Assembly (NCBI RefSeq): GCF_000008625.1
Contig: NC_000918.1
Location: forward strand, 720,001-752,000
Direction: 5' to 3'
DNA from: Aquifex aeolicus VF5
Lineage (GTDB): Bacteria > Aquificota > Aquificia > Aquificales > Aquificaceae
Length of the DNA: 32,000 nt
Position numbers and translations under genes: made by a program. Of the stretch, positions 874 to 29,626 are shown one piece after another. Every line of letters begins with the position of its first letter. The stretch's first letter is position 1. The notes beneath the pieces are model-generated. The model ran no database searches, was not told the DNA's origin, and saw nothing but the letters and a program-made list of their open reading frames with translations.

Positions 874-3800
874 ATGGATATTTCAAGGAGGGGTTTTTTA
901 AAACTATCAGTAGGTAGTGTTGGAGCTGGGATATTAGGTGGTCTCGGTTTTGATCTTACACCTGCTTATGCACGTGTAAGAGATTTAAAAATAACAAAGG
1001 CAAAAGTAACAAAAAGTATATGTCCTTACTGCTCCGTATCCTGTGGAATACTAGCCTACTCCCTTTCCGACGGAGCGATGAATGTTAAAGAAAGAATAAT
1101 ACACGTAGAGGGTAACCCGGATGACCCGATAAATAGAGGAACTTTATGTCCTAAAGGGGCAACCTTAAGAGATTTCGTAAACGCTCCTGATAGGCTTACC
1201 AAGCCCTTGTACAGACCTGCAGGATCTACAGAATGGAAAGAAATAAGCTGGGACGAGGCTATAGAGAAGTTCGCAAGATGGGTAAAGGATACGAGGGATA
1301 GGACCTTTATACACAAGGACAAGGCTGGAAGGGTGGTGAACAGATGTGACTCCATAGTTTGGGCTGTGGGCTCACCCCTTGGGAACGAAGAGGGGTGGCT
1401 CATGGTAAAGATCGGTATAGCCTTAGGTCTCTCGGCACGAGAAACGCAGGCGACTATATGACACGCACCTACGGTGGCCAGTTTGGCCCCAACCTTTGGA
1501 AGAGGAGCAATGACTAACAACTGGGTGGACATCTCCAACTCTGACCTCGTATTCGTAATGGGAGGAAACCCGGCGGAGAACCACCCCTGTGGTTTTAAGT
1601 GGGCCATAAAAGCTCGTGAGAAGAGGGGTGCAAAGATAATATGCATAGACCCAAGGTTTAACAGAACCGCCGCTGTGGCAGATATCTTCGTTCAGATAAG
1701 ACCGGGAACAGATATAGCTTTCCTCGGAGGTCTGATTAACTATGTCCTTCAGAACGAGAAGTATCAGAAGGAGTATGTGAGACTGCACACAACAGGACCC
1801 TTCATAGTGAGGGAGGACTTCGGCTTCAAGGACGGACTCTTTACGGGATACGATCCTAAGACGAGGAGCTACGACACGACCACCTGGGACTACGAGTTCG
1901 ATCCTGCTACGGGATATCCCAAGATGGATCCCGAGATGAAGCATCCCAGATGTGTTCTCAACATCCTGAAGGAGCACTACTCGAGGTATACCCCGGAGGT
2001 CGTCTCCCAGATATGTGGATGTTCCAAGGAGGACTTCCTCAGAGTTGCAGAGGAGGTGGCTAAGTGTGGAGCTCCCAATAAGTTCATGACAATCCTCTAT
2101 GCCTTGGGATGGACCCATCACTCCTACGGAACCCAGCTCATAAGAACTGCCTGTATGCTTCAGCTTCTGCTTGGAAACATAGGTTGTCCGGGAGGAGGAA
2201 TAAATGCCCTCAGAGGTCACTCTAACGTTCAGGGTATGACTGATCTCGCCGGGCAGAACAAGAACCTCCCCACCTACATAAAGCCTCCCAAGCCGGAGGA
2301 ACAAACCCTCGCCCAGCACCTTAAGAACAGGACACCGAGAAAGCTCCATCCCACCAGCCTGAACTACTGGGCAAACTATCCTAAGTTCTTTATCAGCTTT
2401 CTCAAGTGTATGTGGGGCGACGCCGCAACGCCTGAAAATGACTTCGCCTACGACTATCTATACAAACCCGAAGGAGGCTACAACTCCTGGGATAAGTTCA
2501 TAGACGACATGTACAAAGGAAAGATAGAGGGAGTGGTAACCGCAGCCCTTAACTTCTTGAATAACACACCTAACGCCAAGAAGACGGTAAGGGCTCTCAA
2601 AAACCTCAAGTGGATGGTTGTAATGGATCCTTTCATGATAGAGACAGCCCAGTTCTGGAAGGCGGAGGGGTTAGACCCGAAAGAAGTCAAGACGGAGATT
2701 CTCGTCCTTCCAACGGCTGTATTTCTCGAGAAGGAAGGTTCCTTCACCAACAGCGCGAGGTGGGTAAAGTGGAAATACAAGGCTACCGATCCCCCAGGAG
2801 ATGCGAAAGACGAATTCTGGATATTTGGAAGATTCTTTATGAAATTGAAAGAATTTTATGAAAAAGAAGGAGGAGCTTTCCCCGAACCGATTCTCAACCT
2901 CGTCTGGCCCTACAAGAATCCATACTATCCGACTGCAGAAGAAATACTTACCGAAATAAACGGATACTACACAAGGGACGTGGACGGTCACAAGAAGGGA
3001 GAGAGGGTAAGACTCTTCACTGATCTGAGAGACGACGGATCAACTGCCTGCGGGGGATGGCTCTACTGTGGCGTATTCCCGCCTGAGGGCAACCTTGCAA
3101 AGAGAACTGACCTCAGCGATCCCCTCGGTCTGGGAACCTATCCGAACTACGCCTGGAACTGGCCCGCCAACAGGAGGGTCCTCTACAACAGAGCCTCCTG
3201 CGATGAAAAGGGAAGACCGTGGGACCCAGAAAGACCCCTCCTGAGATGGGATCCTGAAAGAGACATGTGGGTAGGTGATATACCTGATTATCCTGCTACC
3301 GCACCTCCCGAAAAGGGTATAGGTGCTTTCATAATGCTCCCAGAAGGAAAAGGAAGATTGTTTGCAGCAAAAAGCTATGTTACATTCAAAGATGGGCCAC
3401 TTCCCGAACACTATGAACCTTATGAATCTCCCGTGACGAATATTCTCCATCCTAATGTTCCTCACAACCCCGTTGCAAAAGTATACAAATCTGATCTGGA
3501 TCTGTTAGGAACTCCCGATAAATTCCCTCATGTTGCTACCACTTATAGGCTAACTGAACATTATCACTTCTGGACAAAGCATCTGTACGGTCCTTCACTG
3601 CTTGCACCAGTAATGTTCATTGAAATACCTGAAGAACTGGCAAAGGAGAAAGGTATCCAAAACGGAGACTTAGTTAGAGTTTCTACTGCAAGAGCATCAA
3701 TAGAAGCTATAGCTTTAGTAACAAAAAGAATAAAACCTCTAAAAGTTGCAGGAAAGACCGTATACACAATAGGTATACCAATACACTGGGGATTTGAAGG

Positions 3801-3912
3801 TCTAGTGAAAGGTGCCATAACAAATTTCATAACGCCCAACGTCTGGGATCCCAACTCTAGAACTCCTGAGTTTAAGGGCTTTCTTGCAAACATTGAAAAG
3901 GTGAAAACTTAA
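874..3912 (+). CDS. fdoG: Formate dehydrogenase (N/O type) catalytic alpha subunit, molybdopterin enzyme, selenocysteine-containing, Tat-exported
   Basis: ORF-track entries 865..1461 and 1474..3912 share one frame and are separated only by TGA 1459-1461. The context ...ETQATI-U-HAPTVASLAPTFGRGAMTNNW matches the FdnG/FdoG Sec site. Twin-arginine leader MDISRRGFLK. SD AAAGGAGGTG lies 7 nt before ATG 874. N-terminal CxxCxxC...C Fe-S motif (CPYCSVSCG). Confidence 0.93.
1459..1461 (+). other. In-frame UGA recoded as selenocysteine
   Basis: TGA at the position of the catalytic Sec in FdnG/FdoG/FdhF homologues. Reading continues in the same frame for more than 800 codons. Confidence 0.88.
1473..1490 (+). 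promoter_or_regulatory. Bacterial SECIS upper stem-loop
   Basis: GGuGGCC-AGUUU-GGCCCC: pairs 1473-1490, 1474-1489, 1476-1488, 1477-1487, 1478-1486, 1479-1485, with U1475 bulged. The hairpin starts 11 nt after the UGA. Counting the U of UGA as +1, the bulged U is +17 and the loop G,U are +23,+24. Confidence 0.75.
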
Positions 3913-3926
3913 GGGAGGTGTAAAAA

Positions 3927-4838
3927 ATGAGCACATTAACTACTGGTGGAACTGTAGGGCTTGGGATTAAGAGACTTTCCGCTTCTAAAGAACCAGACAC
4001 TTCCGTAAAAACTTATCCCGAACTTGCGATTCTCGTAGATGTCTCTTCTTGTATAGGTTGTAAAGCCTGTGAAGCGGCATGTCAGCAATGGCACGATACA
4101 ACTCCTCCCATACTTTCTCCAGAAGAAGTAATAAAGAGGAAAATAGCTGGTTACCAAACTCATCCCGATCTGCTGCCGGAAACATTTATGCTAATGAAGT
4201 TTAAGGAAGGAGAAACAAGCCGTGGATTTACTTGGTTTATAACCAAATACCAATGTATGCACTGCAGGGAACCGGGATGTCTGATCGCCTGCCCCTCCCC
4301 CGGGGCGGTAATCCAGTACCAGAACGGCGTGGTGGACTTCGACCACTCCAAGTGCATAGGTTGTAAAATGTGCTTGGTGGGCTGTCCCTTTGATATTCCG
4401 AGGTACGATAAGAATAACAAACCTTGGAAATGCAACTTCTGTATCGACAGGGTAAGTGCAGGTTTAGAACCAGCCTGCGTGAAGACCTGCCCAACCAACT
4501 GCCTCTCCTTCGGCTTTAAGGAGGATATGATAGAGAGGGGTAAGAAGATAGTGGAGAGATTAAAGGAGAGGGGGTACCCGAACGCAACCCTCTACGATCC
4601 TCCGGGTGTCGGTGGAACGGGATACATTTACGTTCTTCCCCACGGTGATCATGTGAAGGACTATCAGCTTCCCGAAAACCCGAGGGTGGATGCATCGATA
4701 GGTCTGTGGAAGGGTCCTCTGAAGACGATAGGAAGCATAGCCTTTTGGGGCACACTTCTGGGTGTGTTCCTTCAGTTGATACTCTGGGGACCGATAAAGG
4801 TCCTCGGCGGAAAGGAAGAAAAAAGTGAGGAGGGTTAA
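3927..4838 (+). CDS. fdoH: Formate dehydrogenase iron-sulfur beta subunit (4x[4Fe-4S], C-terminal membrane anchor)
   Basis: Multiple CxxCxxCxxxCP ferredoxin motifs and a hydrophobic C-terminal helix (IAFWGTLLGVFLQLILWG). SD GGGAGGTG precedes the ATG; 14-nt gap after fdoG. Confidence 0.9.
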   Translation: MSTLTTGGTVGLGIKRLSASKEPDTSVKTYPELAILVDVSSCIGCKACEAACQQWHDTTPPILSPEEVIKRKIAGYQTHPDLLPETFMLMKFKEGETSRGFTWFITKYQCMHCREPGCLIACPSPGAVIQYQNGVVDFDHSKCIGCKMCLVGCPFDIPRYDKNNKPWKCNFCIDRVSAGLEPACVKTCPTNCLSFGFKEDMIERGKKIVERLKERGYPNATLYDPPGVGGTGYIYVLPHGDHVKDYQLPENPRVDASIGLWKGPLKTIGSIAFWGTLLGVFLQLILWGPIKVLGGKEEKSEEG

Positions 4839-4840
4839 TC

Positions 4841-5476
4841 ATGGCGGTAGAGTACAAAAAGGCTTACGAAGAGCAGATAGAGAGGTTCTCAGCCCTCGAC
4901 AGGATTCTCCACTGGACGACAGCCCTCGCCTTCCTTTACTGTTTCCTGTCGGGGATAGGGATAGCCTACGCCAAGTTCCACTGGCTGCTGACCTTTCTCG
5001 GTGGTGGTGAATTCGCCCGCTGGCTCCATCCGTGGGCCGGCGTCGTCTTTTCAATAGGCGCGGTCCTTATGATCCTCAAATGGGCAAGGGACATGGTGAT
5101 CACTAGAGAGGACATAGTATGGCTGACGAAGATAAAAGCCTACATAAGCGGAAGGCACGAGGAACTTCCCGAGGTCGGAAAATATAATGCAGGGCAGAAG
5201 CTATACGCCTGGGTGGTCTTCCTTAGCGCTATAGTCTTTTTCCTTACGGGTATACTTATGTGGTTTCCGGAAAACTTCAGTATGGGACTAGTGCGCTGGT
5301 CTGTGGTTATACACGAGATAACTTTCATAATAGCCGGAGCCTTCACTATAATACACATCTACATGGCAACCGTCGGAGTTCCGGGCTCCATATGGGGCAT
5401 GATAGGAGGAAAGGTATCAGCCACGTGGGCTAAGTTCCATCACCCCAAGTGGTACAGGGAGGTGGTAAAGAGGTAA
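4841..5476 (+). CDS. fdoI: Formate dehydrogenase cytochrome b556 gamma subunit
   Basis: Four predicted TM helices with conserved His residues (ILHW..., HPW, HEITF, IHIY). 2-nt gap after fdoH; SD GAGGAGGG. Confidence 0.85.
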   Translation: MAVEYKKAYEEQIERFSALDRILHWTTALAFLYCFLSGIGIAYAKFHWLLTFLGGGEFARWLHPWAGVVFSIGAVLMILKWARDMVITREDIVWLTKIKAYISGRHEELPEVGKYNAGQKLYAWVVFLSAIVFFLTGILMWFPENFSMGLVRWSVVIHEITFIIAGAFTIIHIYMATVGVPGSIWGMIGGKVSATWAKFHHPKWYREVVKR

Positions 5477-5495
5477 GTGTCATGAGAAAGCTTAG

Positions 5496-6005
5496 GTGTT
5501 TGAGCAGTGGGATGCGCTCTGCGCCGTCCTTTTTTCTTTCTCAATAGCACAGGAGCTCAAAACACATGCAGACATAGTGAACCAGAAGGGCGAGAAGATA
5601 GGCAAAGCTGAGCTCATACAGACCAACAGTGGAGTTCTCATAAAGCTTGAAGCCTCAAATCTACCACCCAACGCGGAGCTTGCCTTTCACATCCATGAGC
5701 TTGGCAAGTGCGACCCTCCCGACTTTAAGTCCGCAAAGGGACACTTCAACCCCTTTAAGAAAAAGCACGGCCTTTTAAACCCCGAAGGTCCCCACGCTGG
5801 AGACATGCCCAATATTCACACCGATGATAAGGGAAACGTAAGGGTTCAGGTATTAAATCCCTTTGTAACCTTGAAAAAAGGAAAGAAAAATAGCTTATTT
5901 AAAGAAGGCGGAACGGCACTCGTCATTCATGGCGGACCTGACGACTACAAGTCTGATCCCGCGGGAAACGCAGGAAAAAGGATAGCATGTGGGGTGGTGA
6001 AATGA
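5496..6005 (+). CDS. sodC: Cu,Zn superoxide dismutase (start uncertain, see findings)
   Basis: Motifs FHIHE.GKC, GHFNP, HAGD.PN and ALVIHGG.DD...P.GNAG.RIACGV are diagnostic for SodC. The stop overlaps the fdhE ATG (ATGA). Confidence 0.85.
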   Translation: MFEQWDALCAVLFSFSIAQELKTHADIVNQKGEKIGKAELIQTNSGVLIKLEASNLPPNAELAFHIHELGKCDPPDFKSAKGHFNPFKKKHGLLNPEGPHAGDMPNIHTDDKGNVRVQVLNPFVTLKKGKKNSLFKEGGTALVIHGGPDDYKSDPAGNAGKRIACGVVK

Positions 6006-6838
6006 ATATATTCAAGCAAAAAGAAAGAGAATTTGCTTTAAATAGGATTCCTGTTTTGAAGGAAAAATTTCCAGAATCTAACCAAATACTGAACTTTTTA
6101 TCTCATATTCTTGAATACCACAATTCTATTATTTCGGAGATTTCAGATTTAAGTATATCTCTTGATAACCAAAATATAGAAAGTAGATTAGGAAAAGGTA
6201 AACCCGCTTTAAAGCTTTCAGAATATGATTTCGAACCTTTCCTCAAGTACTTTTATCCTTTATTGAATATTGTCTATGAACATGGTACCCCACAAATGAA
6301 AGAAAGAGTAGAGCATTTACAAAGTCTTGAAAAAAAAGAAATATTATCTTTAATATCTTCTTTTTTAGAAAATGGAATTTCGGACGATATGCTGAGATTC
6401 TTCCTTATATCTTATCTCCAACCTATACTCTATACATTTGCAGATAAGGTTAAATTCGAACACGAAAGATGGTTTAAAAATTACTGTCCAGTTTGTGGGT
6501 CTAAACCGTCAGTTTCATTCATTATGGATACGGAAGATTGGGAAGGAGCACGTTTTCTGAGATGTAGTGTTTGTCTTACTGACTGGCTCTATGTAAGAAC
6601 AAAATGTGTAAATTGCGGCAATGTAGAAGACGATAGTTTAGATTATTTTATAAGTTCAGAATTAGATTATATAGAAATTCAAACATGTAAAAAGTGTAAT
6701 AGTTATATAAAAATCATAGATCTTAGAAAAGATGGACTTGCAGTGCCTGATTTAGAAGATATAGCTTCTGTTAGTCTTGATTTATGGGCTCAGGAACAAG
6801 GTTTTATAAAAGTTGAAAGGAATTTTATGGGGTACTAG
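6002..6838 (+). CDS. fdhE: Formate dehydrogenase accessory protein FdhE
   Basis: Four CxxC pairs (CPVCGS, CSVCLT, CVNCGN, CKKCNS) in FdhE-like spacing. Sits in the fdh operon. ATG 6002 overlaps the sodC stop. Confidence 0.8.
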   Translation: MNIFKQKEREFALNRIPVLKEKFPESNQILNFLSHILEYHNSIISEISDLSISLDNQNIESRLGKGKPALKLSEYDFEPFLKYFYPLLNIVYEHGTPQMKERVEHLQSLEKKEILSLISSFLENGISDDMLRFFLISYLQPILYTFADKVKFEHERWFKNYCPVCGSKPSVSFIMDTEDWEGARFLRCSVCLTDWLYVRTKCVNCGNVEDDSLDYFISSELDYIEIQTCKKCNSYIKIIDLRKDGLAVPDLEDIASVSLDLWAQEQGFIKVERNFMGY

Positions 6839-6840
6839 CT

Positions 6841-7368
6841 GTGAAAAGGAGAACGTTTTTAGAATCTCTTCTATTTCTTTTTTTAATAAAAACGGGTTTT
6901 AGTATGGAACGAAAGATAGACGTTTTAGGATGTACCTTGTGGACTGATAGACTTTACAGAGTCGAACCCTATAGAATGTTATTCCAATGGGTAAAGGATG
7001 AAGGAAATGGTATTTATTCTGTAGGAATGGCTTCTATTTTAGCTGCTCTAGCGTATCCACTTTACTCGATAAAAATAAAACCTGTTGGCACTAAGCTGGA
7101 GTACGACGAAGCATTAGCAATAATTGAGGCGGGGAAAAGAGTTGCAACATTCCCGACACCTCTATCTGGCATAGTGGTAGATGTAAATGAAGAAGTGATT
7201 AAAAATCCTGAGCTTATAAATAAAAAACCTTACAGTTCTTGGATTGCTAAGCTAAAAGCTACAAACTTAGAAGAAGTAAAGAACTTACAAAGTGCAAAGG
7301 AGATAGTTAAGACGGTGAAAGATTTTATAATTTTGGAGGATGTAGATTGTTCTATTGTAGAAGAATAG
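6841..7368 (+). CDS. Glycine-cleavage H-protein-like lipoyl-domain protein with N-terminal RR-containing hydrophobic leader
   Basis: VGTKLEYDEALAIIEAGKRVATFPTPLSGIVVDVNEEVIKNPELINKKPYSSWIAKLK aligns with the GcvH lipoyl-lysine region (..ES.K....PvSG.vvevN..l...PelvN..PY..gW..k.k). Lys codon at 7135-7137. N-terminus (V)KRRTFLESLLFLFLI. GTG start lies 2 nt after the fdhE stop; the alternative ATG is at 6904. Confidence 0.7.
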   Translation: MKRRTFLESLLFLFLIKTGFSMERKIDVLGCTLWTDRLYRVEPYRMLFQWVKDEGNGIYSVGMASILAALAYPLYSIKIKPVGTKLEYDEALAIIEAGKRVATFPTPLSGIVVDVNEEVIKNPELINKKPYSSWIAKLKATNLEEVKNLQSAKEIVKTVKDFIILEDVDCSIVEE

Positions 7369-7370
7369 AA

Positions 7371-7469
7371 GGGAGAGGTTGGCCGGCTGGTGCCGCCCCG
7401 GGACTTCAAATCCCGTGGGAGGTCCCGCAAGGGAGCTCCGGAGGGTTCGATTCCCTCCCTCTCCCGCCA
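7371..7469 (+). tRNA. selC: tRNA-Sec (anticodon TCA), 99 nt, CCA encoded
   Basis: 8-bp acceptor stem GGGAGAGG/CCTCTCCC and 5-bp T stem GAGGG/CCCTC with TTCGATT loop. Anticodon loop CTTCAAA. Long variable arm closed by a GCAA loop. Discriminator G plus CCA. Confidence 0.93.
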
Positions 7470-7479
7470 ATAAGTTGTT

Positions 7480-8592
7480 ATGATTTACTTTGATAACGCG
7501 GCAACTACACCTGTACTTCCAGAAGTAAAAAACTTCCTATGTAAAGCACTAGACATTTATGGGAATCCATCAAGTGTACATACACTAGGCAAATTTGCAA
7601 GAAGTGAAATAGAAACGGCAAGAAAAACAATTGCGAATTATTTGAAAGTAAAACCGGAAAATATTATTTTTAACTCTTGTGCAACTGAAGGAAATAATAC
7701 GATAATAAGAACGATATTAAACAATAAAGATAGGGGCAATGTAGTATTATCAGCAATAGAACATAAATCTGTGAAAGAGGCAATAAAATTTTGGGCAAAT
7801 AAAAGTATAGAAATAAGAGAGATTAAAGTAAATAAAAATGGAGTAATTGATTTAGAACACCTTTACCATTTGATTGATAGTAATACAATTTTAGTTTGCG
7901 TTATGTATGTAAGCAACGAATTCGGAACAATTCAGCCTATACAGGAAATAGCTAAAATTTGCTCCGATAAGGGTGTACCATTGCTAACAGATGCAGTGCA
8001 AGCAATAGGAAAAATCCCAATTGAACTAAAAAATATATCCTATGCGACATTTTCTGGACATAAATTTCACGCTATAAAAGGAAGTGGATTTTTATACATT
8101 TCTGACGAAGCTAATTATGAGCCTCTTATAGTTGGTGGAGGACAAGAAAATGGAAAAAGATCAGGTACAGAAAATGTTGTAGGAATACTTTCGTTAGCTA
8201 AAGCACTTGAAATAATTGTTTCTAACTTTTCGCGCTATCAGGAACAGCTTAAAAAATTAAGAGATCTTTTTGAGAATCTATTGCTTGAAGCTTTGCCAGA
8301 TGCTCAAATTGTAGGAAAAGATGCAGAAAGAAGTCCCTCAATATCTTCTGTTATTATGCCTAAATTTTTCGGAGCAGAAATAGTTAATAAATTATCAGAA
8401 AAGGGAATATATTGCTCGACTGGATCAGCCTGTTTATCAGGAGAATATGAGCCGAATAAACATATGTTGAAAATGGGGTTTTCTCAAGAAAAAGCTTTAA
8501 GAATGGTACGCTTTTCATTTGGTCTTTTAAACAAAGAGGAAGAAGTAATAGAATGTATAGAAAGAATAAAAGAAATTTATAGATTAAATTAA
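7480..8592 (+). CDS. NifS/IscS-like class V PLP-dependent cysteine desulfurase (possible selenocysteine lyase)
   Basis: PLP-lysine motif SGHKFHAIKGSGFLY and active-site loop STGSACLSGE (group I SxGSAC). Length 370 aa. ATG lies 10 nt after the tRNA-Sec CCA, with no SD. Confidence 0.8.
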   Translation: MIYFDNAATTPVLPEVKNFLCKALDIYGNPSSVHTLGKFARSEIETARKTIANYLKVKPENIIFNSCATEGNNTIIRTILNNKDRGNVVLSAIEHKSVKEAIKFWANKSIEIREIKVNKNGVIDLEHLYHLIDSNTILVCVMYVSNEFGTIQPIQEIAKICSDKGVPLLTDAVQAIGKIPIELKNISYATFSGHKFHAIKGSGFLYISDEANYEPLIVGGGQENGKRSGTENVVGILSLAKALEIIVSNFSRYQEQLKKLRDLFENLLLEALPDAQIVGKDAERSPSISSVIMPKFFGAEIVNKLSEKGIYCSTGSACLSGEYEPNKHMLKMGFSQEKALRMVRFSFGLLNKEEEVIECIERIKEIYRLN

Positions 8593-8706
8593 AACGTCCA
8601 TCAACACAATTCTATAAAGGTGTAGAAAAAACAGTTTAGATATTAACTTATCACAGCCTAAAGAAAGGTAAGAAAGGCTGAAGAAGCAGTTAGAAGAACT
8701 ATTTAA

Positions 8707-8990
8707 AAAGTTAGAGAAACGAATGAGGTAGACTCGTCAATAAAAGCAAAGTCAGTAATACTGTATTTTAACGGAATATCTTTCAGAAAAGCAGTTCAAA
8801 TAATAGAACAGGAAACTGGTCTACGTGGATGAAACGAAGATAAAAGCAAGGGGCAAGCAGTATCGGTGGAAATCTTGCAGGGAGCTAAAATGCGGATGAA
8901 TACATGAAACTTTTGAAGTAGAAATGTGGTAAAGAGGTGGTTCAAGCATATTAAGCAGAGGATAAAGGGCTTTTACAAACTCTTTCTCCT
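8707..8990 (+). pseudogene. Decayed IS6-like (DDE) transposase remnant, multiple frameshifts and internal deletions
   Basis: Three short collinear segments in different frames. KAKSVILYFNGISFRKAVQIIEQETGL is HTH-like. VDETKIKARGKQY matches the first catalytic D region of IS6-type transposases. VKRWFKHIKQRIKGFYKLF matches the C-terminal ERfF..lK.R...Fy motif. There is no ORF of 60 aa or more in the 406-nt gap. Confidence 0.5.
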
Positions 8991-8998
8991 TTATTACT

Positions 8999-10590
<1,592 letters not shown>

Positions 10591-10600
10591 CTAATTAAGA

Positions 10601-10676
10601 TGGTAGGCGCGGGGGGACTTGAACCCCCGACCTCCGGCGTGTCGGGCCGGCGCTCTCCCTACTGAGCTACGCGCCT
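10601..10676 (-). tRNA. tRNA-Val (anticodon GAC), 76 nt, CCA encoded
   Basis: Reverse complement is AGGCGCG-TA-GCTC-AGTAGGGA-GAGC-G-CCGGC-CCGACAC-GCCGG-AGGTC-GGGGG-TTCAAGT-CCCCC-CGCGCCT-A-CCA. This is a clean cloverleaf with discriminator A73. Confidence 0.88.
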
Positions 10677-27142: not shown

Positions 27143-28146
27143 ATGACAGGGTATATTAGATTTTTTCTTGCTTTTCTAGTTTTAATTTCCCATTTAGGTA
27201 TTAGGTTTAAAGGAATGAATGAAGGGGTTTTTGCTGTTGTAATTTTTTATATATTAGCTGGACATGTAGTGACAAAACTTTTCCTCGAAAAGATTAAAAG
27301 TAATGATATTATTAAAAGGTTAAAAATATTTTATATAGAAAGATTTTTAAGGATTTTCCCAAGGTATGTATCAATTTTTTTCTAACTCTTGTCTTTTTAT
27401 TTCTAACCAATTACGGAAACCCCTATATAAATTTCTGCAACTTTCTTTTAAACTTACTAATAATTCCCCTTAACTACTATATGTATTTAGAAAATTGTAT
27501 AGTAATACTAACATCCACTACACCTCCTTGGTGGGCTATACCTCCTGCCTGGTCCTTAGGAGCAGAAATACAAGCATACTTTCTTCTTCCAATACTTTTG
27601 ACGTATAAAATGCTTGGCTTGAGTGTTTTCTGGATATCGTACATTATTTACTCATTGGCTAATTTAAATATAATACACTCTGATTACTTCGGTTATAGAT
27701 TAATCCCAGGAGTTATATTTATGTTTCTTTCAGGTGCTTATTTACAAAAAATAGTAAGCGGAAAAGCTTCCCGCCTGGAAATGCTTTCTTTGATAATAAT
27801 ATACATTATAAGTCTTTTTTGGCTTGTATTTTTTATAATAATTAAAGGAAAATACGGAGCTTATACAAGAGAAACCTTATTAGGCTTATTAGTAGGTATC
27901 CCTCTGGTTTACACTTTGCTAAAAATTAGAAGAAAGTTTTATTTTAATGACTTATTTGGAAAACTTTCATACGGTATATTCCTTTCACACTTTTTATCCT
28001 TTTGGATTCTTGAGTTTGTAAATTTAACACAAAATATAATATCTATGATATTCCTATCCTTAATAATTTCGGCTTCAGTATCGTATTTAATCATTACCCT
28101 TATAGAAAATAAGGTTGAAAAAATAAGATACAACCTGACGAGGTAA
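27143..28146 (+). pseudogene. Acyltransferase-3 (OafA/NolL-type membrane O-acyltransferase) split by a frameshift at a T7 run
   Basis: ORFs 27143..27385 (RFFLAFLVLISH..., ERFLRIFPRY) and 27481..28146 (W.IPPAWSLGAEIQAYFLLP) are the N- and C-terminal parts of one acyltransferase_3 protein. The second frame is open back to 27340. The frames meet at TTTTTTT 27375-27381. Confidence 0.7.
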
Positions 28147-28362
28147 AATAAGAAGGAGAAAAAAGGTTAAGCAAAACTATGTGTCTGTCCCTCGGTAACT
28201 ATTCATATACTCTATACGCATCCGTCTCATACTCCTCCGCTTCAGGTATTTTCGCCAAAATCTTTTAAAGTTGTCTTCCGTTTTTTACCACTTTTTCGCT
28301 CCCGCACTCAGGGCATCTCATAGCTTATATTCTCTTATCATCTCTTTTGTGAACTACCAAAC

Positions 28363-28368
28363 TATAAT
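28363..28368 (+). promoter_or_regulatory. Consensus TATAAT, 7 nt upstream of ATG 28376
   Basis: tataatacatagtATG, with no SD. Compare tataataatagtGTG at tetR. Confidence 0.4.
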
Positions 28369-28375
28369 ACATAGT

Positions 28376-29626
28376 ATGAGATTCTCCATAAGAAATGTTA
28401 GCGAACAGGAAGTTAAAAGGGAAATAAGACACATATTGGAAGAAGTTTCTTCCGATAAAGATGAAATATCTAATAAACATAAACCTACAACTGTAGTAAA
28501 ACCCGTTGACTTTGAAAATATAGATTTAAACTACCTGTTTTCCTTAAACGGAGCTGAATTTGTTAGAAGCGCCTACAGGTTGGTTCTTGGTCGAGAACCG
28601 GATCCTCAAGGTATAGAATATTTTCTTTCAAAATTATTCTCAGGCGAATACACTAAAGGAGATGTTATAGTACACCTTAGATTATCTAAAGAAGGTAGAA
28701 AAAGAAAAACAAAGATTAAAGGTTTTTATAAACTAGCTATACCTTTCTTTTTAAAAAGAGTACCTATAATATCTAAGTTTTATAATTTAGGCAAATTTCT
28801 GATCTTCCCTGAAAGATTTTTAAGGAGACTTATAGCTCTTGAAAATTTCTCTTATACGCATATATTGGAGCTTAAACATGAATTGTACATTTTAAAACAA
28901 TCCACAAATGAAAAAATAAGATTCCTAGAGGAAATTACTTCACCACTCAGAAAGATAGAGGTTAATAATATATGGACAAAAGAATTCAACTTTGGAATTG
29001 AGAATAAAGAAAATTTTTACGCTTCCTTTGAAAATGCATTTAGGGGAGGGTACGAAAGTATAAAAGAAAAGCAAAAAATTTACTTAGATATCTTAAAAAA
29101 AGAAGGAGTAAGAGGAAAGGTGTTAGACGTAGGTTGTGGAAGAGGGGAGTTTTTAGAACTATTAAAACAAGAAGGCTTTGAAGGCATTGGAATAGATGTT
29201 AATAATTATTTAATAGATTTATTAAAAAAGAGAGGGTTTAAAGTTTTTAATATGGATGCCATTTCGTTCCTAGAACAATTTGATGAGGCTTTAGACGCAA
29301 TAACTGCTTTTCAAGTTATTGAACATATGTCTATTAAATACTTAAAAAAATTCTTGGAACTTAGTTATAAAAAGCTTTCTAACGGTGGGCTTATAATTCT
29401 TGAAACGATAAATCCTTGGAACATAGAAGCGTTCGCAAGGTTTTACTTAGACGAAACACATGTAAGACCTATTGTGCCAGAGTATCTCTATTTTCTACTA
29501 AAATACATAGGATTTAAAGATGTTAAGGTAATTTTTCTTTCTCCTTTAGAAAAGGAAATATTCAGTTTTCAAAAATTAAAATATTACTACTTGGATTATG
29601 CGGTTATTGGAAAAAAGGAGGAGTGA
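28376..29626 (+). CDS. DUF4214-domain / class I SAM-dependent methyltransferase fusion protein
   Basis: FVRSAYRLVLGREPDPQGIEYFLSKL is DUF4214-like. VLDVGCGRGEFLELL...GIDVN is SAM motif I. ATG 28376 is preferred over the ORF-track TTG at 28271. Confidence 0.75.
   Translation: MRFSIRNVSEQEVKREIRHILEEVSSDKDEISNKHKPTTVVKPVDFENIDLNYLFSLNGAEFVRSAYRLVLGREPDPQGIEYFLSKLFSGEYTKGDVIVHLRLSKEGRKRKTKIKGFYKLAIPFFLKRVPIISKFYNLGKFLIFPERFLRRLIALENFSYTHILELKHELYILKQSTNEKIRFLEEITSPLRKIEVNNIWTKEFNFGIENKENFYASFENAFRGGYESIKEKQKIYLDILKKEGVRGKVLDVGCGRGEFLELLKQEGFEGIGIDVNNYLIDLLKKRGFKVFNMDAISFLEQFDEALDAITAFQVIEHMSIKYLKKFLELSYKKLSNGGLIILETINPWNIEAFARFYLDETHVRPIVPEYLYFLLKYIGFKDVKVIFLSPLEKEIFSFQKLKYYYLDYAVIGKKEE

Follow-up and report, generated by a model that had tools for sequence, protein, structure and literature searches.

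A window of 32,000 nucleotides from Aquifex aeolicus VF5 (contig NC_000918.1, positions 720,001 to 752,000, forward strand) was analysed; it carries an operon for a formate dehydrogenase (FDH), the gene for the selenocysteine tRNA (selC, tRNA-Sec) and a gene for a NifS-like enzyme. We consider it reasonably probable that this region, the FDH half of the selenocysteine (Sec) island of Aquificaceae, is a single unit headed by a regulator gene of the LysR_Se family, that selC is co-transcribed within it, and that the NifS-like protein is an enzyme dedicated to mobilising sulfur or selenium. The gene content, the junctions, their conservation, the family assignments and the residue signatures behind this reading are direct observations.

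Elements of the unit

A sequence-only reading of this DNA had listed eight elements, from fdoG to the nifS-like gene, on a single strand. Open reading frame (ORF) calls, a tRNA scan and family matches bore out strand, coordinates and junction lengths alike. The elements and the regions flanking them are, in window positions and with the GC content at third codon positions (GC3) where noted:

lysR_Se, 3' two-thirds: 1-652, + strand; regulator gene cut by the window start, frame open from base 2; GC3 0.23
lysR-fdoG intergenic region: 653-873, + strand; GC content 0.21; ends in the fdoG Shine-Dalgarno sequence AGGAGGTG
fdoG (aq_1039): 874-3912, + strand; alpha subunit of a formate dehydrogenase of the twin-arginine translocation (Tat) type, molybdopterin/tungstopterin enzyme, selenoprotein
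fdoH (aq_1046): 3927-4838, + strand; Fe-S beta subunit, membrane-anchored at its C-terminus; TIGR01582 525 bits, Form-deh_trans domain
fdoI (aq_1049): 4841-5476, + strand; cytochrome b gamma subunit; TIGR01583 300 bits
sodC: 5496-6005, + strand; periplasmic Cu,Zn superoxide dismutase; Pfam Sod_Cu 139.6 bits
fdhE: 6002-6838, + strand; formate dehydrogenase accessory protein with FdhE_central and FdhE_C domains; GC3 0.22
gcvH-like (aq_1052, annotated gcvH1): 6841-7368, + strand; LbpA-type lipoate-binding protein with twin-arginine signal
selC, tRNA-Sec (UCA): 7371-7469, + strand; CCA encoded, A at position -1; ARAGORN, Rfam RF01852
nifS-like: 7480-8592, + strand; paralogue of group-I pyridoxal-phosphate (PLP) cysteine desulfurases, 370 aa; GC3 0.19
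Non-coding spacer after nifS-like: 8593-8998, no strand; 406 nt, GC content 0.35; right border of the compositionally atypical cluster

From fdoG to nifS-like, the junctions measure 14, 2, 19, -4, 2, 2 and 10 nt, the negative value being an ATGA overlap of sodC and fdhE; the fdhE start at 6002 is backed by orthologues of 278 aa. The gaps between the genes had been described as free of promoters and terminators, and this held in a consensus scan of the window, which yielded 18 promoter-like sites against 15.6 expected, that is, no excess, and detected nothing resembling a terminator on the + strand in the gaps between operon genes. The spacer 8593-8998 contained no ORF and no terminator-like site.

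The three FDH subunits scored above the equivalog cut-offs. TIGR01553 (FDH-N alpha subunit) matched both halves of fdoG with 334 and 1565 bits, the N-terminus MDISRRGFLK is a twin-arginine signal, and the selenocysteine codon is an in-frame TGA at 1459-1461 on the + strand (context ATA TGA CAC GCA, '...QATI-U-HAPTVASLAPTFGRG'). Subunit composition, active-site UGA and export signal together identify the enzyme as a Sec-containing FDH of the N/O type. FdoG, for which the locus tag aq_1039 was taken from PMC10052474, is 88-93% identical to its relatives, in which the gene is either split at the UGA by gene callers or present as a single product of ~1012 aa in NCBI records. A recent replacement of fdoGHI as the cause of the 90% identity was considered and rejected, as the relatives are alike conserved among themselves. 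A selenocysteine insertion (SECIS) hairpin was predicted after the UGA (GGCCA-GUU-UGGCC); its energy equalled that of shuffled sequence, and it was not used as evidence. The gene sodC varies within the operon: L086, L090 and L091 lack it, whereas A. aeolicus, L087, L088, L095 and many loci of the Thermocrinis type have it. A periplasmic SodC encoded in the operon of a periplasmic FDH suggests that, in this microaerophile, an oxygen-sensitive enzyme is being protected.

selC and its neighbourhood in Aquificaceae

The selC gene matched Rfam RF01852 over the full model (1-91) with 71.9 bits, compared to a gathering score of 47, was called tRNA-SeC with anticodon tca by ARAGORN, and has the features of a bacterial tRNA-Sec. 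An A at position -1, as found here, agrees with A. aeolicus pre-tRNAs (PMC12439589). To compare its neighbourhood, loci were sampled as contigs encoding orthologues of the NifS-like or the gcvH-like protein, together with metagenome contigs scanned with the gcvH-like alignment, followed by tRNA scans and tblastn. At every gcvH-like locus (28 of 28, a count that includes the window itself), fdoG-fdoH-fdoI-(sodC)-fdhE lies upstream, and tRNA-Sec starts 0-15 nt past the gcvH-like stop codon. In six relatives selC is nearly invariant, and both of its junctions are conserved at the nucleotide level: across the six aligned genomes the gcvH-like stop codon abuts or overlaps base 1 of the tRNA, and the nifS-like ATG follows 9-12 nt past the CCA. 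This spacing is so tight that it leaves no room for a promoter or a terminator.

The complete order lysR-fdoGHI-(sodC)-fdhE-gcvH-like-selC-nifS-like recurs in 8 distinct loci of the Aquifex/Hydrogenivirga type. Among these is L091, where the conserved unit stands between unrelated flanks, an amidohydrolase gene upstream and mnmA downstream, which supports the proposal that the eight elements form one conserved unit. The sequence-only reading had further called for a comparison of selC neighbourhoods, and here the result was divided. The linkage of gcvH-like and selC was conserved throughout; however, a nifS-like gene behind selC was confined to the Aquifex/Hydrogenivirga branch (the window, L086, L087 from H. 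caldilitoris, L088/L089, L090 from Hydrogenivirga sp. 128-5-R1-1, L091, L095 and L096) and was absent from all 19 loci of the Thermocrinis/Hydrogenobacter type (L092-L094 and L097-L112), all of which are still Sec-decoding.

These latter loci keep a Sec-type fdoG, selC and sel genes. In several of them a lysR-selB-selA-(transglutaminase)-selD operon runs head-on into selC; the selD stop codon abuts the 3' end of tRNA-Sec in L098 (7615-13762) and L100 (7615-12730), which are complete Sec islands without any desulfurase. The selD gene of this type has an in-frame UGA ('RASG*AAKVGPGD'). Absence of nifS-like from Sec-decoding sister genera implies that the gene is dispensable for Sec decoding and FDH maturation.

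As a control, we used 80 distant NifS loci obtained by a genome scan with generic back-translated NifS-like patterns, which returned no orthologues. No tRNA-Sec was present within 10 kb in any of 60 control loci around generic NifS homologues, and selB, LysR_Se, fdoG, fdhE and gcvH-like were absent from all 80.

An integrase-type island inserted at selC was considered and rejected: the window contains no second copy of the selC 3' end (≤3 mismatches), no relevant repeats and no neighbouring integrase. In L086 (10001-11200), automatic gene calling had stretched the nifS-like gene to 399 aa, so that it overlapped tRNA-Sec (9982-10081), and similar mis-called ORFs may hide selC in other assemblies. 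The window contains another tRNA gene, tRNA-Val (GAC), with no relation to the selC operon; it occupies 10601-10676 of the minus strand, and its neighbours are pstB on one side and a nicotinate phosphoribosyltransferase gene on the other.

Downstream of nifS-like, Hydrogenivirga-type relatives have a 235-aa ORF that begins 5-8 nt past the gene and encodes a protein with a signal-like N-terminus and a C-terminal aromatic residue; it had no Pfam or NCBIfam match. The spacer 8593-8998 was rejected as a remnant of this ORF, as tblastn detected no similarity. It was likewise rejected as a decayed transposase gene: on inspection, frame fragments such as 'VYVDETKIKARGKQY' resembled a transposase, yet they had no Pfam match.

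Transcription and regulation

From this arrangement we infer co-transcription of the unit, processing of its RNA and regulation by LysR_Se. One promoter in the AT-rich region 653-873, probably under the control of LysR_Se, would give rise to a single long precursor RNA spanning fdoG(U)-fdoH-fdoI-sodC-fdhE-lbpA-like-selC-nifS-like. The tRNA-Sec would be freed from this precursor by RNase P, which is protein-only in Aquifex, and by 3' processing, and its excision would yield a 3' fragment that carries nifS-like behind a leader of only ~10 nt and from which the gene would be translated. Embedded in the operon, selC would yield tRNA-Sec in step with expression of the fdoG mRNA, the UGA-containing message that is its main client; this suggests a simple means of matching tRNA-Sec supply to one dominant selenoprotein mRNA.

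Alternatively, selC might be monocistronic and read from its own promoter in the 3' end of the upstream coding sequence, with a separate start for nifS-like and the short spacing a mere effect of genome compaction. The genome of A. aeolicus is indeed compact, E. coli selC has its own promoter and a 25-nt leader (PMC12439589), and the last 30 nt of the gcvH-like gene are well conserved at the nucleotide level, although conserved residues are encoded there too. On the other hand, the stretch 7000-7370 gave no promoter-like match on its + strand in the consensus scan, the junctions of 0-2 nt and 9-12 nt have been kept across genera whose proteins share only ~50-65% identity, and strand and order are identical in 28 of 28 loci. 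We judge separate transcription of selC to be quite improbable.

The regulator gene had been overlooked by the sequence-only reading. The ORF at bases 2-652, cut by the left border of the window, is a partial gene with NF040786 as its best NCBIfam match (134.7 bits over the C-terminal 172 aa), and the full-length LysR orthologue in L087 reached 319.4 bits compared to a curated cut-off of 250. Wherever the contig reaches far enough (the window and L086-L091), lysR_Se is located directly upstream of fdoG, and the LysR_Se family has been statistically tied to the Sec trait (PMC5322559). The region 653-873 is presumed to comprise the operon promoter and the regulator-binding region; its sigma-70-like match, at 720-748, is weak. 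When the lysR-fdoG region was aligned with those of five relatives, the Shine-Dalgarno sequence proved conserved, and an A/T-rich dyad (ATATAA-N8-TTATAT type), a candidate binding site for LysR_Se, recurred near the stop codon of lysR.

The NifS-like enzyme

The NifS-like protein (Aminotran_5, 236 bits) is a group-I cysteine desulfurase of the NifS/IscS kind, with the PLP-binding Lys195 in SGHK, the catalytic Cys318 in STGSACLS and the His95 of the EH motif, all three invariant in its clade and in outgroups. Its best NCBIfam match is TIGR03402 (NifS), and it fell below the cut-offs of that model (353 of 531 bits), of TIGR02006 (IscS; 232 of 643 bits) and of NF002806 (241 of 304 bits). Among PDB entries, the NifS-like protein of Thermotoga maritima (1ECX) comes closest. 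Orthologues form a clade of ~19 proteins, all from Aquificota, at 55-66% identity, after which matches fall to 43%. Members of the clade stop ~20 residues short of the LRxxSP[LF][WY] tail present in outgroup NifS and IscS proteins. This C-terminal tail contributes to binding of the scaffold proteins IscU and NifU, and its lack suggests a specialised rather than a housekeeping enzyme.

According to the strict version of the sequence-only reading, the module is a self-contained cassette whose last enzyme is a Sec-specific lyase yielding Se(0) for selenophosphate synthesis. The location of the gene directly behind selC is in line with such a function, as is the precedent of SclA, which is encoded next to selD and has been proposed to feed selenium to SelD (PMC2276186; bioRxiv 10.1101/2020.02.07.939272). 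Three residues, Asp146, Val256 and His389, set the Sec-specific human SCL apart from generic desulfurases (Collins et al. 2012, PMC3266270). At these positions, the A. aeolicus protein has Lys, Ser and Leu (IEH-K-SV, TF-S-GHKF and GSAC-L-S) and its clade K, S and S/T/A/V/F/L; this is the generic desulfurase pattern, by which a Sec-specific lyase is not indicated. The scores with the Sec-lyase models were far under the cut-offs (103 vs 525 bits for NF040779, SclA; 175 vs 377 bits for TIGR01977), and the protein has a group-I motif and lacks the group-II motif RXGXHCA of SclA. Given, in addition, that selA, selB and selD lie outside the proposed cassette and that other Sec-decoding Aquificaceae do without the gene, we regard the strict version as very improbable. 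In its wider form, as a dedicated selenium supply and decoding cassette, the proposal fared better in that a role of the enzyme as selenium donor is plausible from its sequence; the generic desulfurase residues and the absence of nifS-like from the sister genera speak against it.

The gene encodes a lineage-specific group-I desulfurase that was added only in the Aquifex/Hydrogenivirga branch, and as it is missing in the sister genera, its function can only be accessory under any reading. Most likely, the enzyme is a dedicated mobiliser of sulfur or selenium, bound to the enzyme as a persulfide or selenosulfide, for selenoenzyme maturation. The gene context fits selenium supply and sulfur supply alike. 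Delivery of selenium to SelD is the role we favour, if only tentatively. Generic bacterial NifS-like enzymes cleave Sec and can supply selenium to SelD in vitro (bioRxiv 10.1101/2020.02.07.939272).

A second possibility, which follows close behind and is about as good an explanation, is that the enzyme is a sulfur donor dedicated to FDH, providing the terminal sulfido ligand of the molybdenum or tungsten bis(pyranopterin guanine dinucleotide) (Mo/W-bisPGD) cofactor, as IscS does together with FdhD in E. coli, and/or sulfur for the Fe-S clusters in FdoG and FdoH, five in all, and that its position at selC is incidental. The nifS-like gene is the last one of an FDH operon that also holds the maturation factor gene fdhE, and the signature residues are of the generic cysteine-desulfurase type. 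In cells, free cysteine is far more abundant than free selenocysteine, which likewise counts in favour of a sulfur donor. Moreover, FdhF, FdnG and FdoG need IscS-derived sulfur transferred via FdhD (PMC6239281). However, no fdhD-like gene was present in any of the loci, the sister genera mature the same FDH without nifS-like, and the atypical composition of the gene matches selD, selA and selB as much as fdhE.

A general small desulfurase (of the YrvO/NifZ kind, acting in tRNA thiolation or the like) that hitch-hikes at the 3' end of a mobile FDH/Sec island is a third possibility. In its favour are the mnmA gene behind nifS-like in L091, the adjacency of mnmA and generic NifS genes in 5 of the 80 control loci, the lack of nifS-like in the sister genera, and the foreign and mosaic composition of the island in A. 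aeolicus. Yet all 8 loci of the clade have nifS-like 9-12 nt behind selC, irrespective of what flanks the unit, the clade was met only within this cluster among the loci examined, and the mnmA adjacency within it is confined to a single locus. We consider such a hitch-hiker to be quite unlikely.

Several observations weigh against a co-transcribed unit ending in a dedicated mobiliser. Apart from the generic active-site residues and the dispensability of nifS-like noted above, no acceptor gene (SelD, FdhD) adjoins nifS-like, and in L091 (11187-12260) it is followed by mnmA, which encodes a tRNA 2-thiouridylase, a classical sulfur acceptor. With regard to expression, an internal promoter may be present within the lbpA-like coding region, and the 10-nt leader of A. 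aeolicus nifS-like (7470-7479) has no Shine-Dalgarno sequence (AUAAGUUGUU), so that the mRNA would be nearly leaderless once the tRNA has been excised. The corresponding spacer carries GGGGGAG in L087 and L090 and GGGGAAG in L088.

An LbpA-type protein with a twin-arginine signal

The gcvH-like protein is the most unexpected element of the cluster. It matched Pfam GCV_H with 135 bits and scored below the GcvH equivalogs (TIGR00527, 56.9 vs 115.85 bits; NF002270, 81.6 vs 117 bits); together with its twin-arginine signal and the absence of gcvP and gcvT nearby, this sets it apart from GcvH, although the lipoyl-lysine position is conserved. Among 37 homologues, the RR motif (RRxF[LI]K) is at least 90% conserved and is followed by a hydrophobic stretch and an A/S-M-G site, and K99 (the lipoyl-lysine position), Cys31 and Cys170 are invariant. 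A lipoyl-lysine together with one N-terminal and one C-terminal cysteine is the signature that distinguishes LbpA from GcvH (Cao et al. 2018, PMC6067878), and K99, C31 and C170 place the protein with LbpA on residues. By context it differs: LbpA is cytoplasmic and encoded with shdr, dsrE and lipoate-ligase genes, whereas the gcvH-like gene always resides in the fdh-selC operon (28 of 28 loci) and its product bears a Tat-type signal. An exhaustive profile search gave P0170 as the closest relative that lacks a signal; the identity is 38%, both cysteines align, and the locus of P0170 (L113) is an HdrA/HdrC/HdrB-DsrE-LbpA-radical-SAM cluster, i.e. of the sHdr-DsrE type.

The GTG start at 6841 is backed by an N-terminal extension conserved in 36 of the 37 homologues; public annotations begin at later ATGs (143 or 154 aa) and thereby lose the signal. 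The signal-bearing family has 49 members in 5.8 billion proteins according to a word-based search, each named one from either a genus of Aquificaceae or an unclassified metagenome bin, and forms a single full-length cluster among 1.84 billion representatives. The product of gcvH1/aq_1052 was not detected in the soluble proteome (PMC10052474). A lipoprotein lipobox ('VLGC') was considered and rejected owing to charged residues between the motif and the hydrophobic region.

The protein could be a chalcogen carrier that is exported, makes use of a lipoyl group and/or of cysteines, and cooperates with the cytoplasmic NifS-like enzyme, a proposal to which we assign little probability. Two modes can be envisaged. 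Periplasmic selenium could be captured as a selenotrisulfide on the dithiol and fed to the Sec pathway; or the carrier could bring persulfide sulfur or reducing power to the Mo/W-Sec centre of the periplasmic FDH, which is exposed to oxygen, to re-sulfurate it and to protect it alongside SodC. If true, a lipoate-binding protein would have been found in the periplasm for the first time, and with it a new accessory system for a selenoenzyme. With its Tat signal, the LbpA-like protein widens the recently recognised group of non-canonical lipoate-binding proteins to include a possible function in the periplasm, and the LbpA-type assignment corrects the label 'gcvH1' used in metabolic reconstructions of A. 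aeolicus (PMC10052474).

selD, selA, selB and the compositional history of the island

The term self-contained, as used in the sequence-only reading, was an overstatement, since the module left out not only the upstream LysR_Se gene but also selD, selA and selB, which are located outside the window on a separate A. aeolicus contig, L114 (7526-11749). There, selD and selA are on the minus strand and selB is on the + strand, followed by a transglutaminase-like gene; the encoded SelB is 100% identical to that of A. aeolicus. L114 and the window do not overlap and could not be joined. The selB-transglutaminase order on L114 matches the selB-transglutaminase-lysR order of L086, and selA and selB adjoin the FDH/selC operon in L087, L088 and L090; selD-selA-selB are probably located just upstream of the window in A. 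aeolicus. SelD, SelA, SelB and tRNA-Sec of this species have already been structurally characterised.

The unit is of mosaic composition in A. aeolicus. GC3 values were 0.19-0.28 for lysR, fdhE, LbpA-like and nifS-like and 0.50-0.64 for fdoGHI and sodC, with neighbouring genes at ~0.5. A sliding analysis placed the block boundaries inside genes, at ~1000 and ~3200 in fdoG and at ~4200 in fdoH, with low GC3 at 2-1000, 3214-4167 and 6002-8592 and high GC3 at 1234-3200 and 4227-5860. The clusters of relatives are compositionally uniform, and the mosaic suggests recombination between low-GC and GC-typical versions of one cluster. On L114, selD, selA and selB had GC3 values of 0.23-0.26; the transglutaminase-like gene and gyrB were GC-typical. 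The low GC3 that nifS-like has in common with lysR, fdhE, lbpA-like, selD, selA and selB points to a history shared with the Sec genes. It agrees with the published view that the Sec trait travels with fdhA, with which sel genes cluster and are apparently transferred (Zhang et al. 2006, PMC1794560). Elsewhere in the window, two further low-GC3 genes (0.26-0.27) at 27481-29626, encoding an Acyl_transf_3 protein and a DUF4214-methyltransferase protein, probably represent another acquired segment.

Comparison with known systems

Parts of this arrangement have already been described, namely LysR_Se (PMC5322559), sel genes together with fdhA (PMC1794560), a NifS-like Sec lyase beside selD (PMC2276186; bioRxiv 10.1101/2020.02.07.939272), selC overlapping selB (PMC13188914) and mixed tRNA-mRNA operons (PMC12439589). 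The suggestion that the module is not a described operon type holds, as far as the literature searched goes, for the specific layout, but not for the general idea, as the associations of sel genes with fdhA, of LysR_Se with the Sec trait and of NifS-like genes with selD are published. In the same literature we found neither selC as a cistron of the operon of its client selenoprotein, nor a group-I NifS paralogue fixed behind selC, nor an LbpA-type protein with a Tat signal. Nothing in these results overturns current concepts; what they chiefly offer is the LbpA-like protein and a selenium-donor question that can be put to the test. A 2026 review describes the system that donates selenium to selenophosphate synthetase as 'incompletely elucidated' and bacterial Sec lyases as 'ambiguous' (PMC13188914). 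A desulfurase paralogue fixed 3' of selC is a concrete and testable candidate for such a donor; should it be an ordinary sulfur donor, the unit would be a tidy but ordinary maturation operon.

With regard to the enzyme, the closest parallel is SclA of Enterococcus faecalis (EF_2568; PMC2276186; bioRxiv 10.1101/2020.02.07.939272), likewise a PLP enzyme of the NifS family linked to selenium-use genes. SclA belongs to group II (TIGR01977/NF040779) and is encoded beside selD and a selenium-dependent molybdenum hydroxylase, whereas the A. aeolicus protein belongs to group I (GSAC) and is encoded beside selC and FDH. LbpA of the sHdr sulfur-oxidation system (PMC6067878) has the GcvH fold, the lipoyl-lysine and the two cysteines in common with the gcvH-like protein. 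It is cytoplasmic and occurs with shdr genes; in contrast, the gcvH-like protein has a conserved twin-arginine signal, is encoded in the FDH/selC operon and is restricted to Aquificaceae. The A. aeolicus regulator is, by the score of its orthologue, a probable member of LysR_Se/HrsM (NF040786; Lin et al. 2015, PMC5322559), and its gene adjoins Sec genes. What differs is that this gene immediately precedes the selenoprotein operon in the same orientation, whereas the Thermocrinis/Hydrogenobacter-type lysR heads the lysR-selB-selA-selD operon instead.

The fdnGHI and fdoGHI-fdhE operons of E. coli (PMC6239281) also encode a three-subunit, Tat-exported Sec enzyme with an operon fdhE and a desulfurase-dependent sulfido ligand. 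Unlike the A. aeolicus operon, they contain no tRNA gene and no genes for a desulfurase, SodC or a lipoate-binding protein, and E. coli selC is monocistronic and located elsewhere in the genome. In the selABC/fdhA clusters (PMC1794560), Sec-decoding genes stand together with the gene for the Sec-containing FDH alpha subunit and have apparently been transferred with it. In A. aeolicus, selC is found in the fdh operon, with selD, selA and selB on L114 and, in the relatives, nearby. It is, however, not part of a selAB operon but the penultimate cistron of the selenoprotein operon, and neither the LbpA-like nor the NifS-like gene flanking it belongs to the clusters described in that study. Finally, release of the tRNA from a mixed precursor, as proposed here, has precedents in tRNA-mRNA operons such as thrU-tyrU-glyT-thrT-tufB of E. 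coli (PMC12439589), and selC is likewise coupled to a gene of the Sec pathway where it lies inside or overlaps selB, as in some Proteobacteria and Nitrospirae (PMC12439589; PMC13188914). The A. aeolicus arrangement differs from all of these in that the tRNA is coupled to the mRNA of its own decoding client and is flanked by two cistrons at junctions of 0-2 and 9-12 nt.

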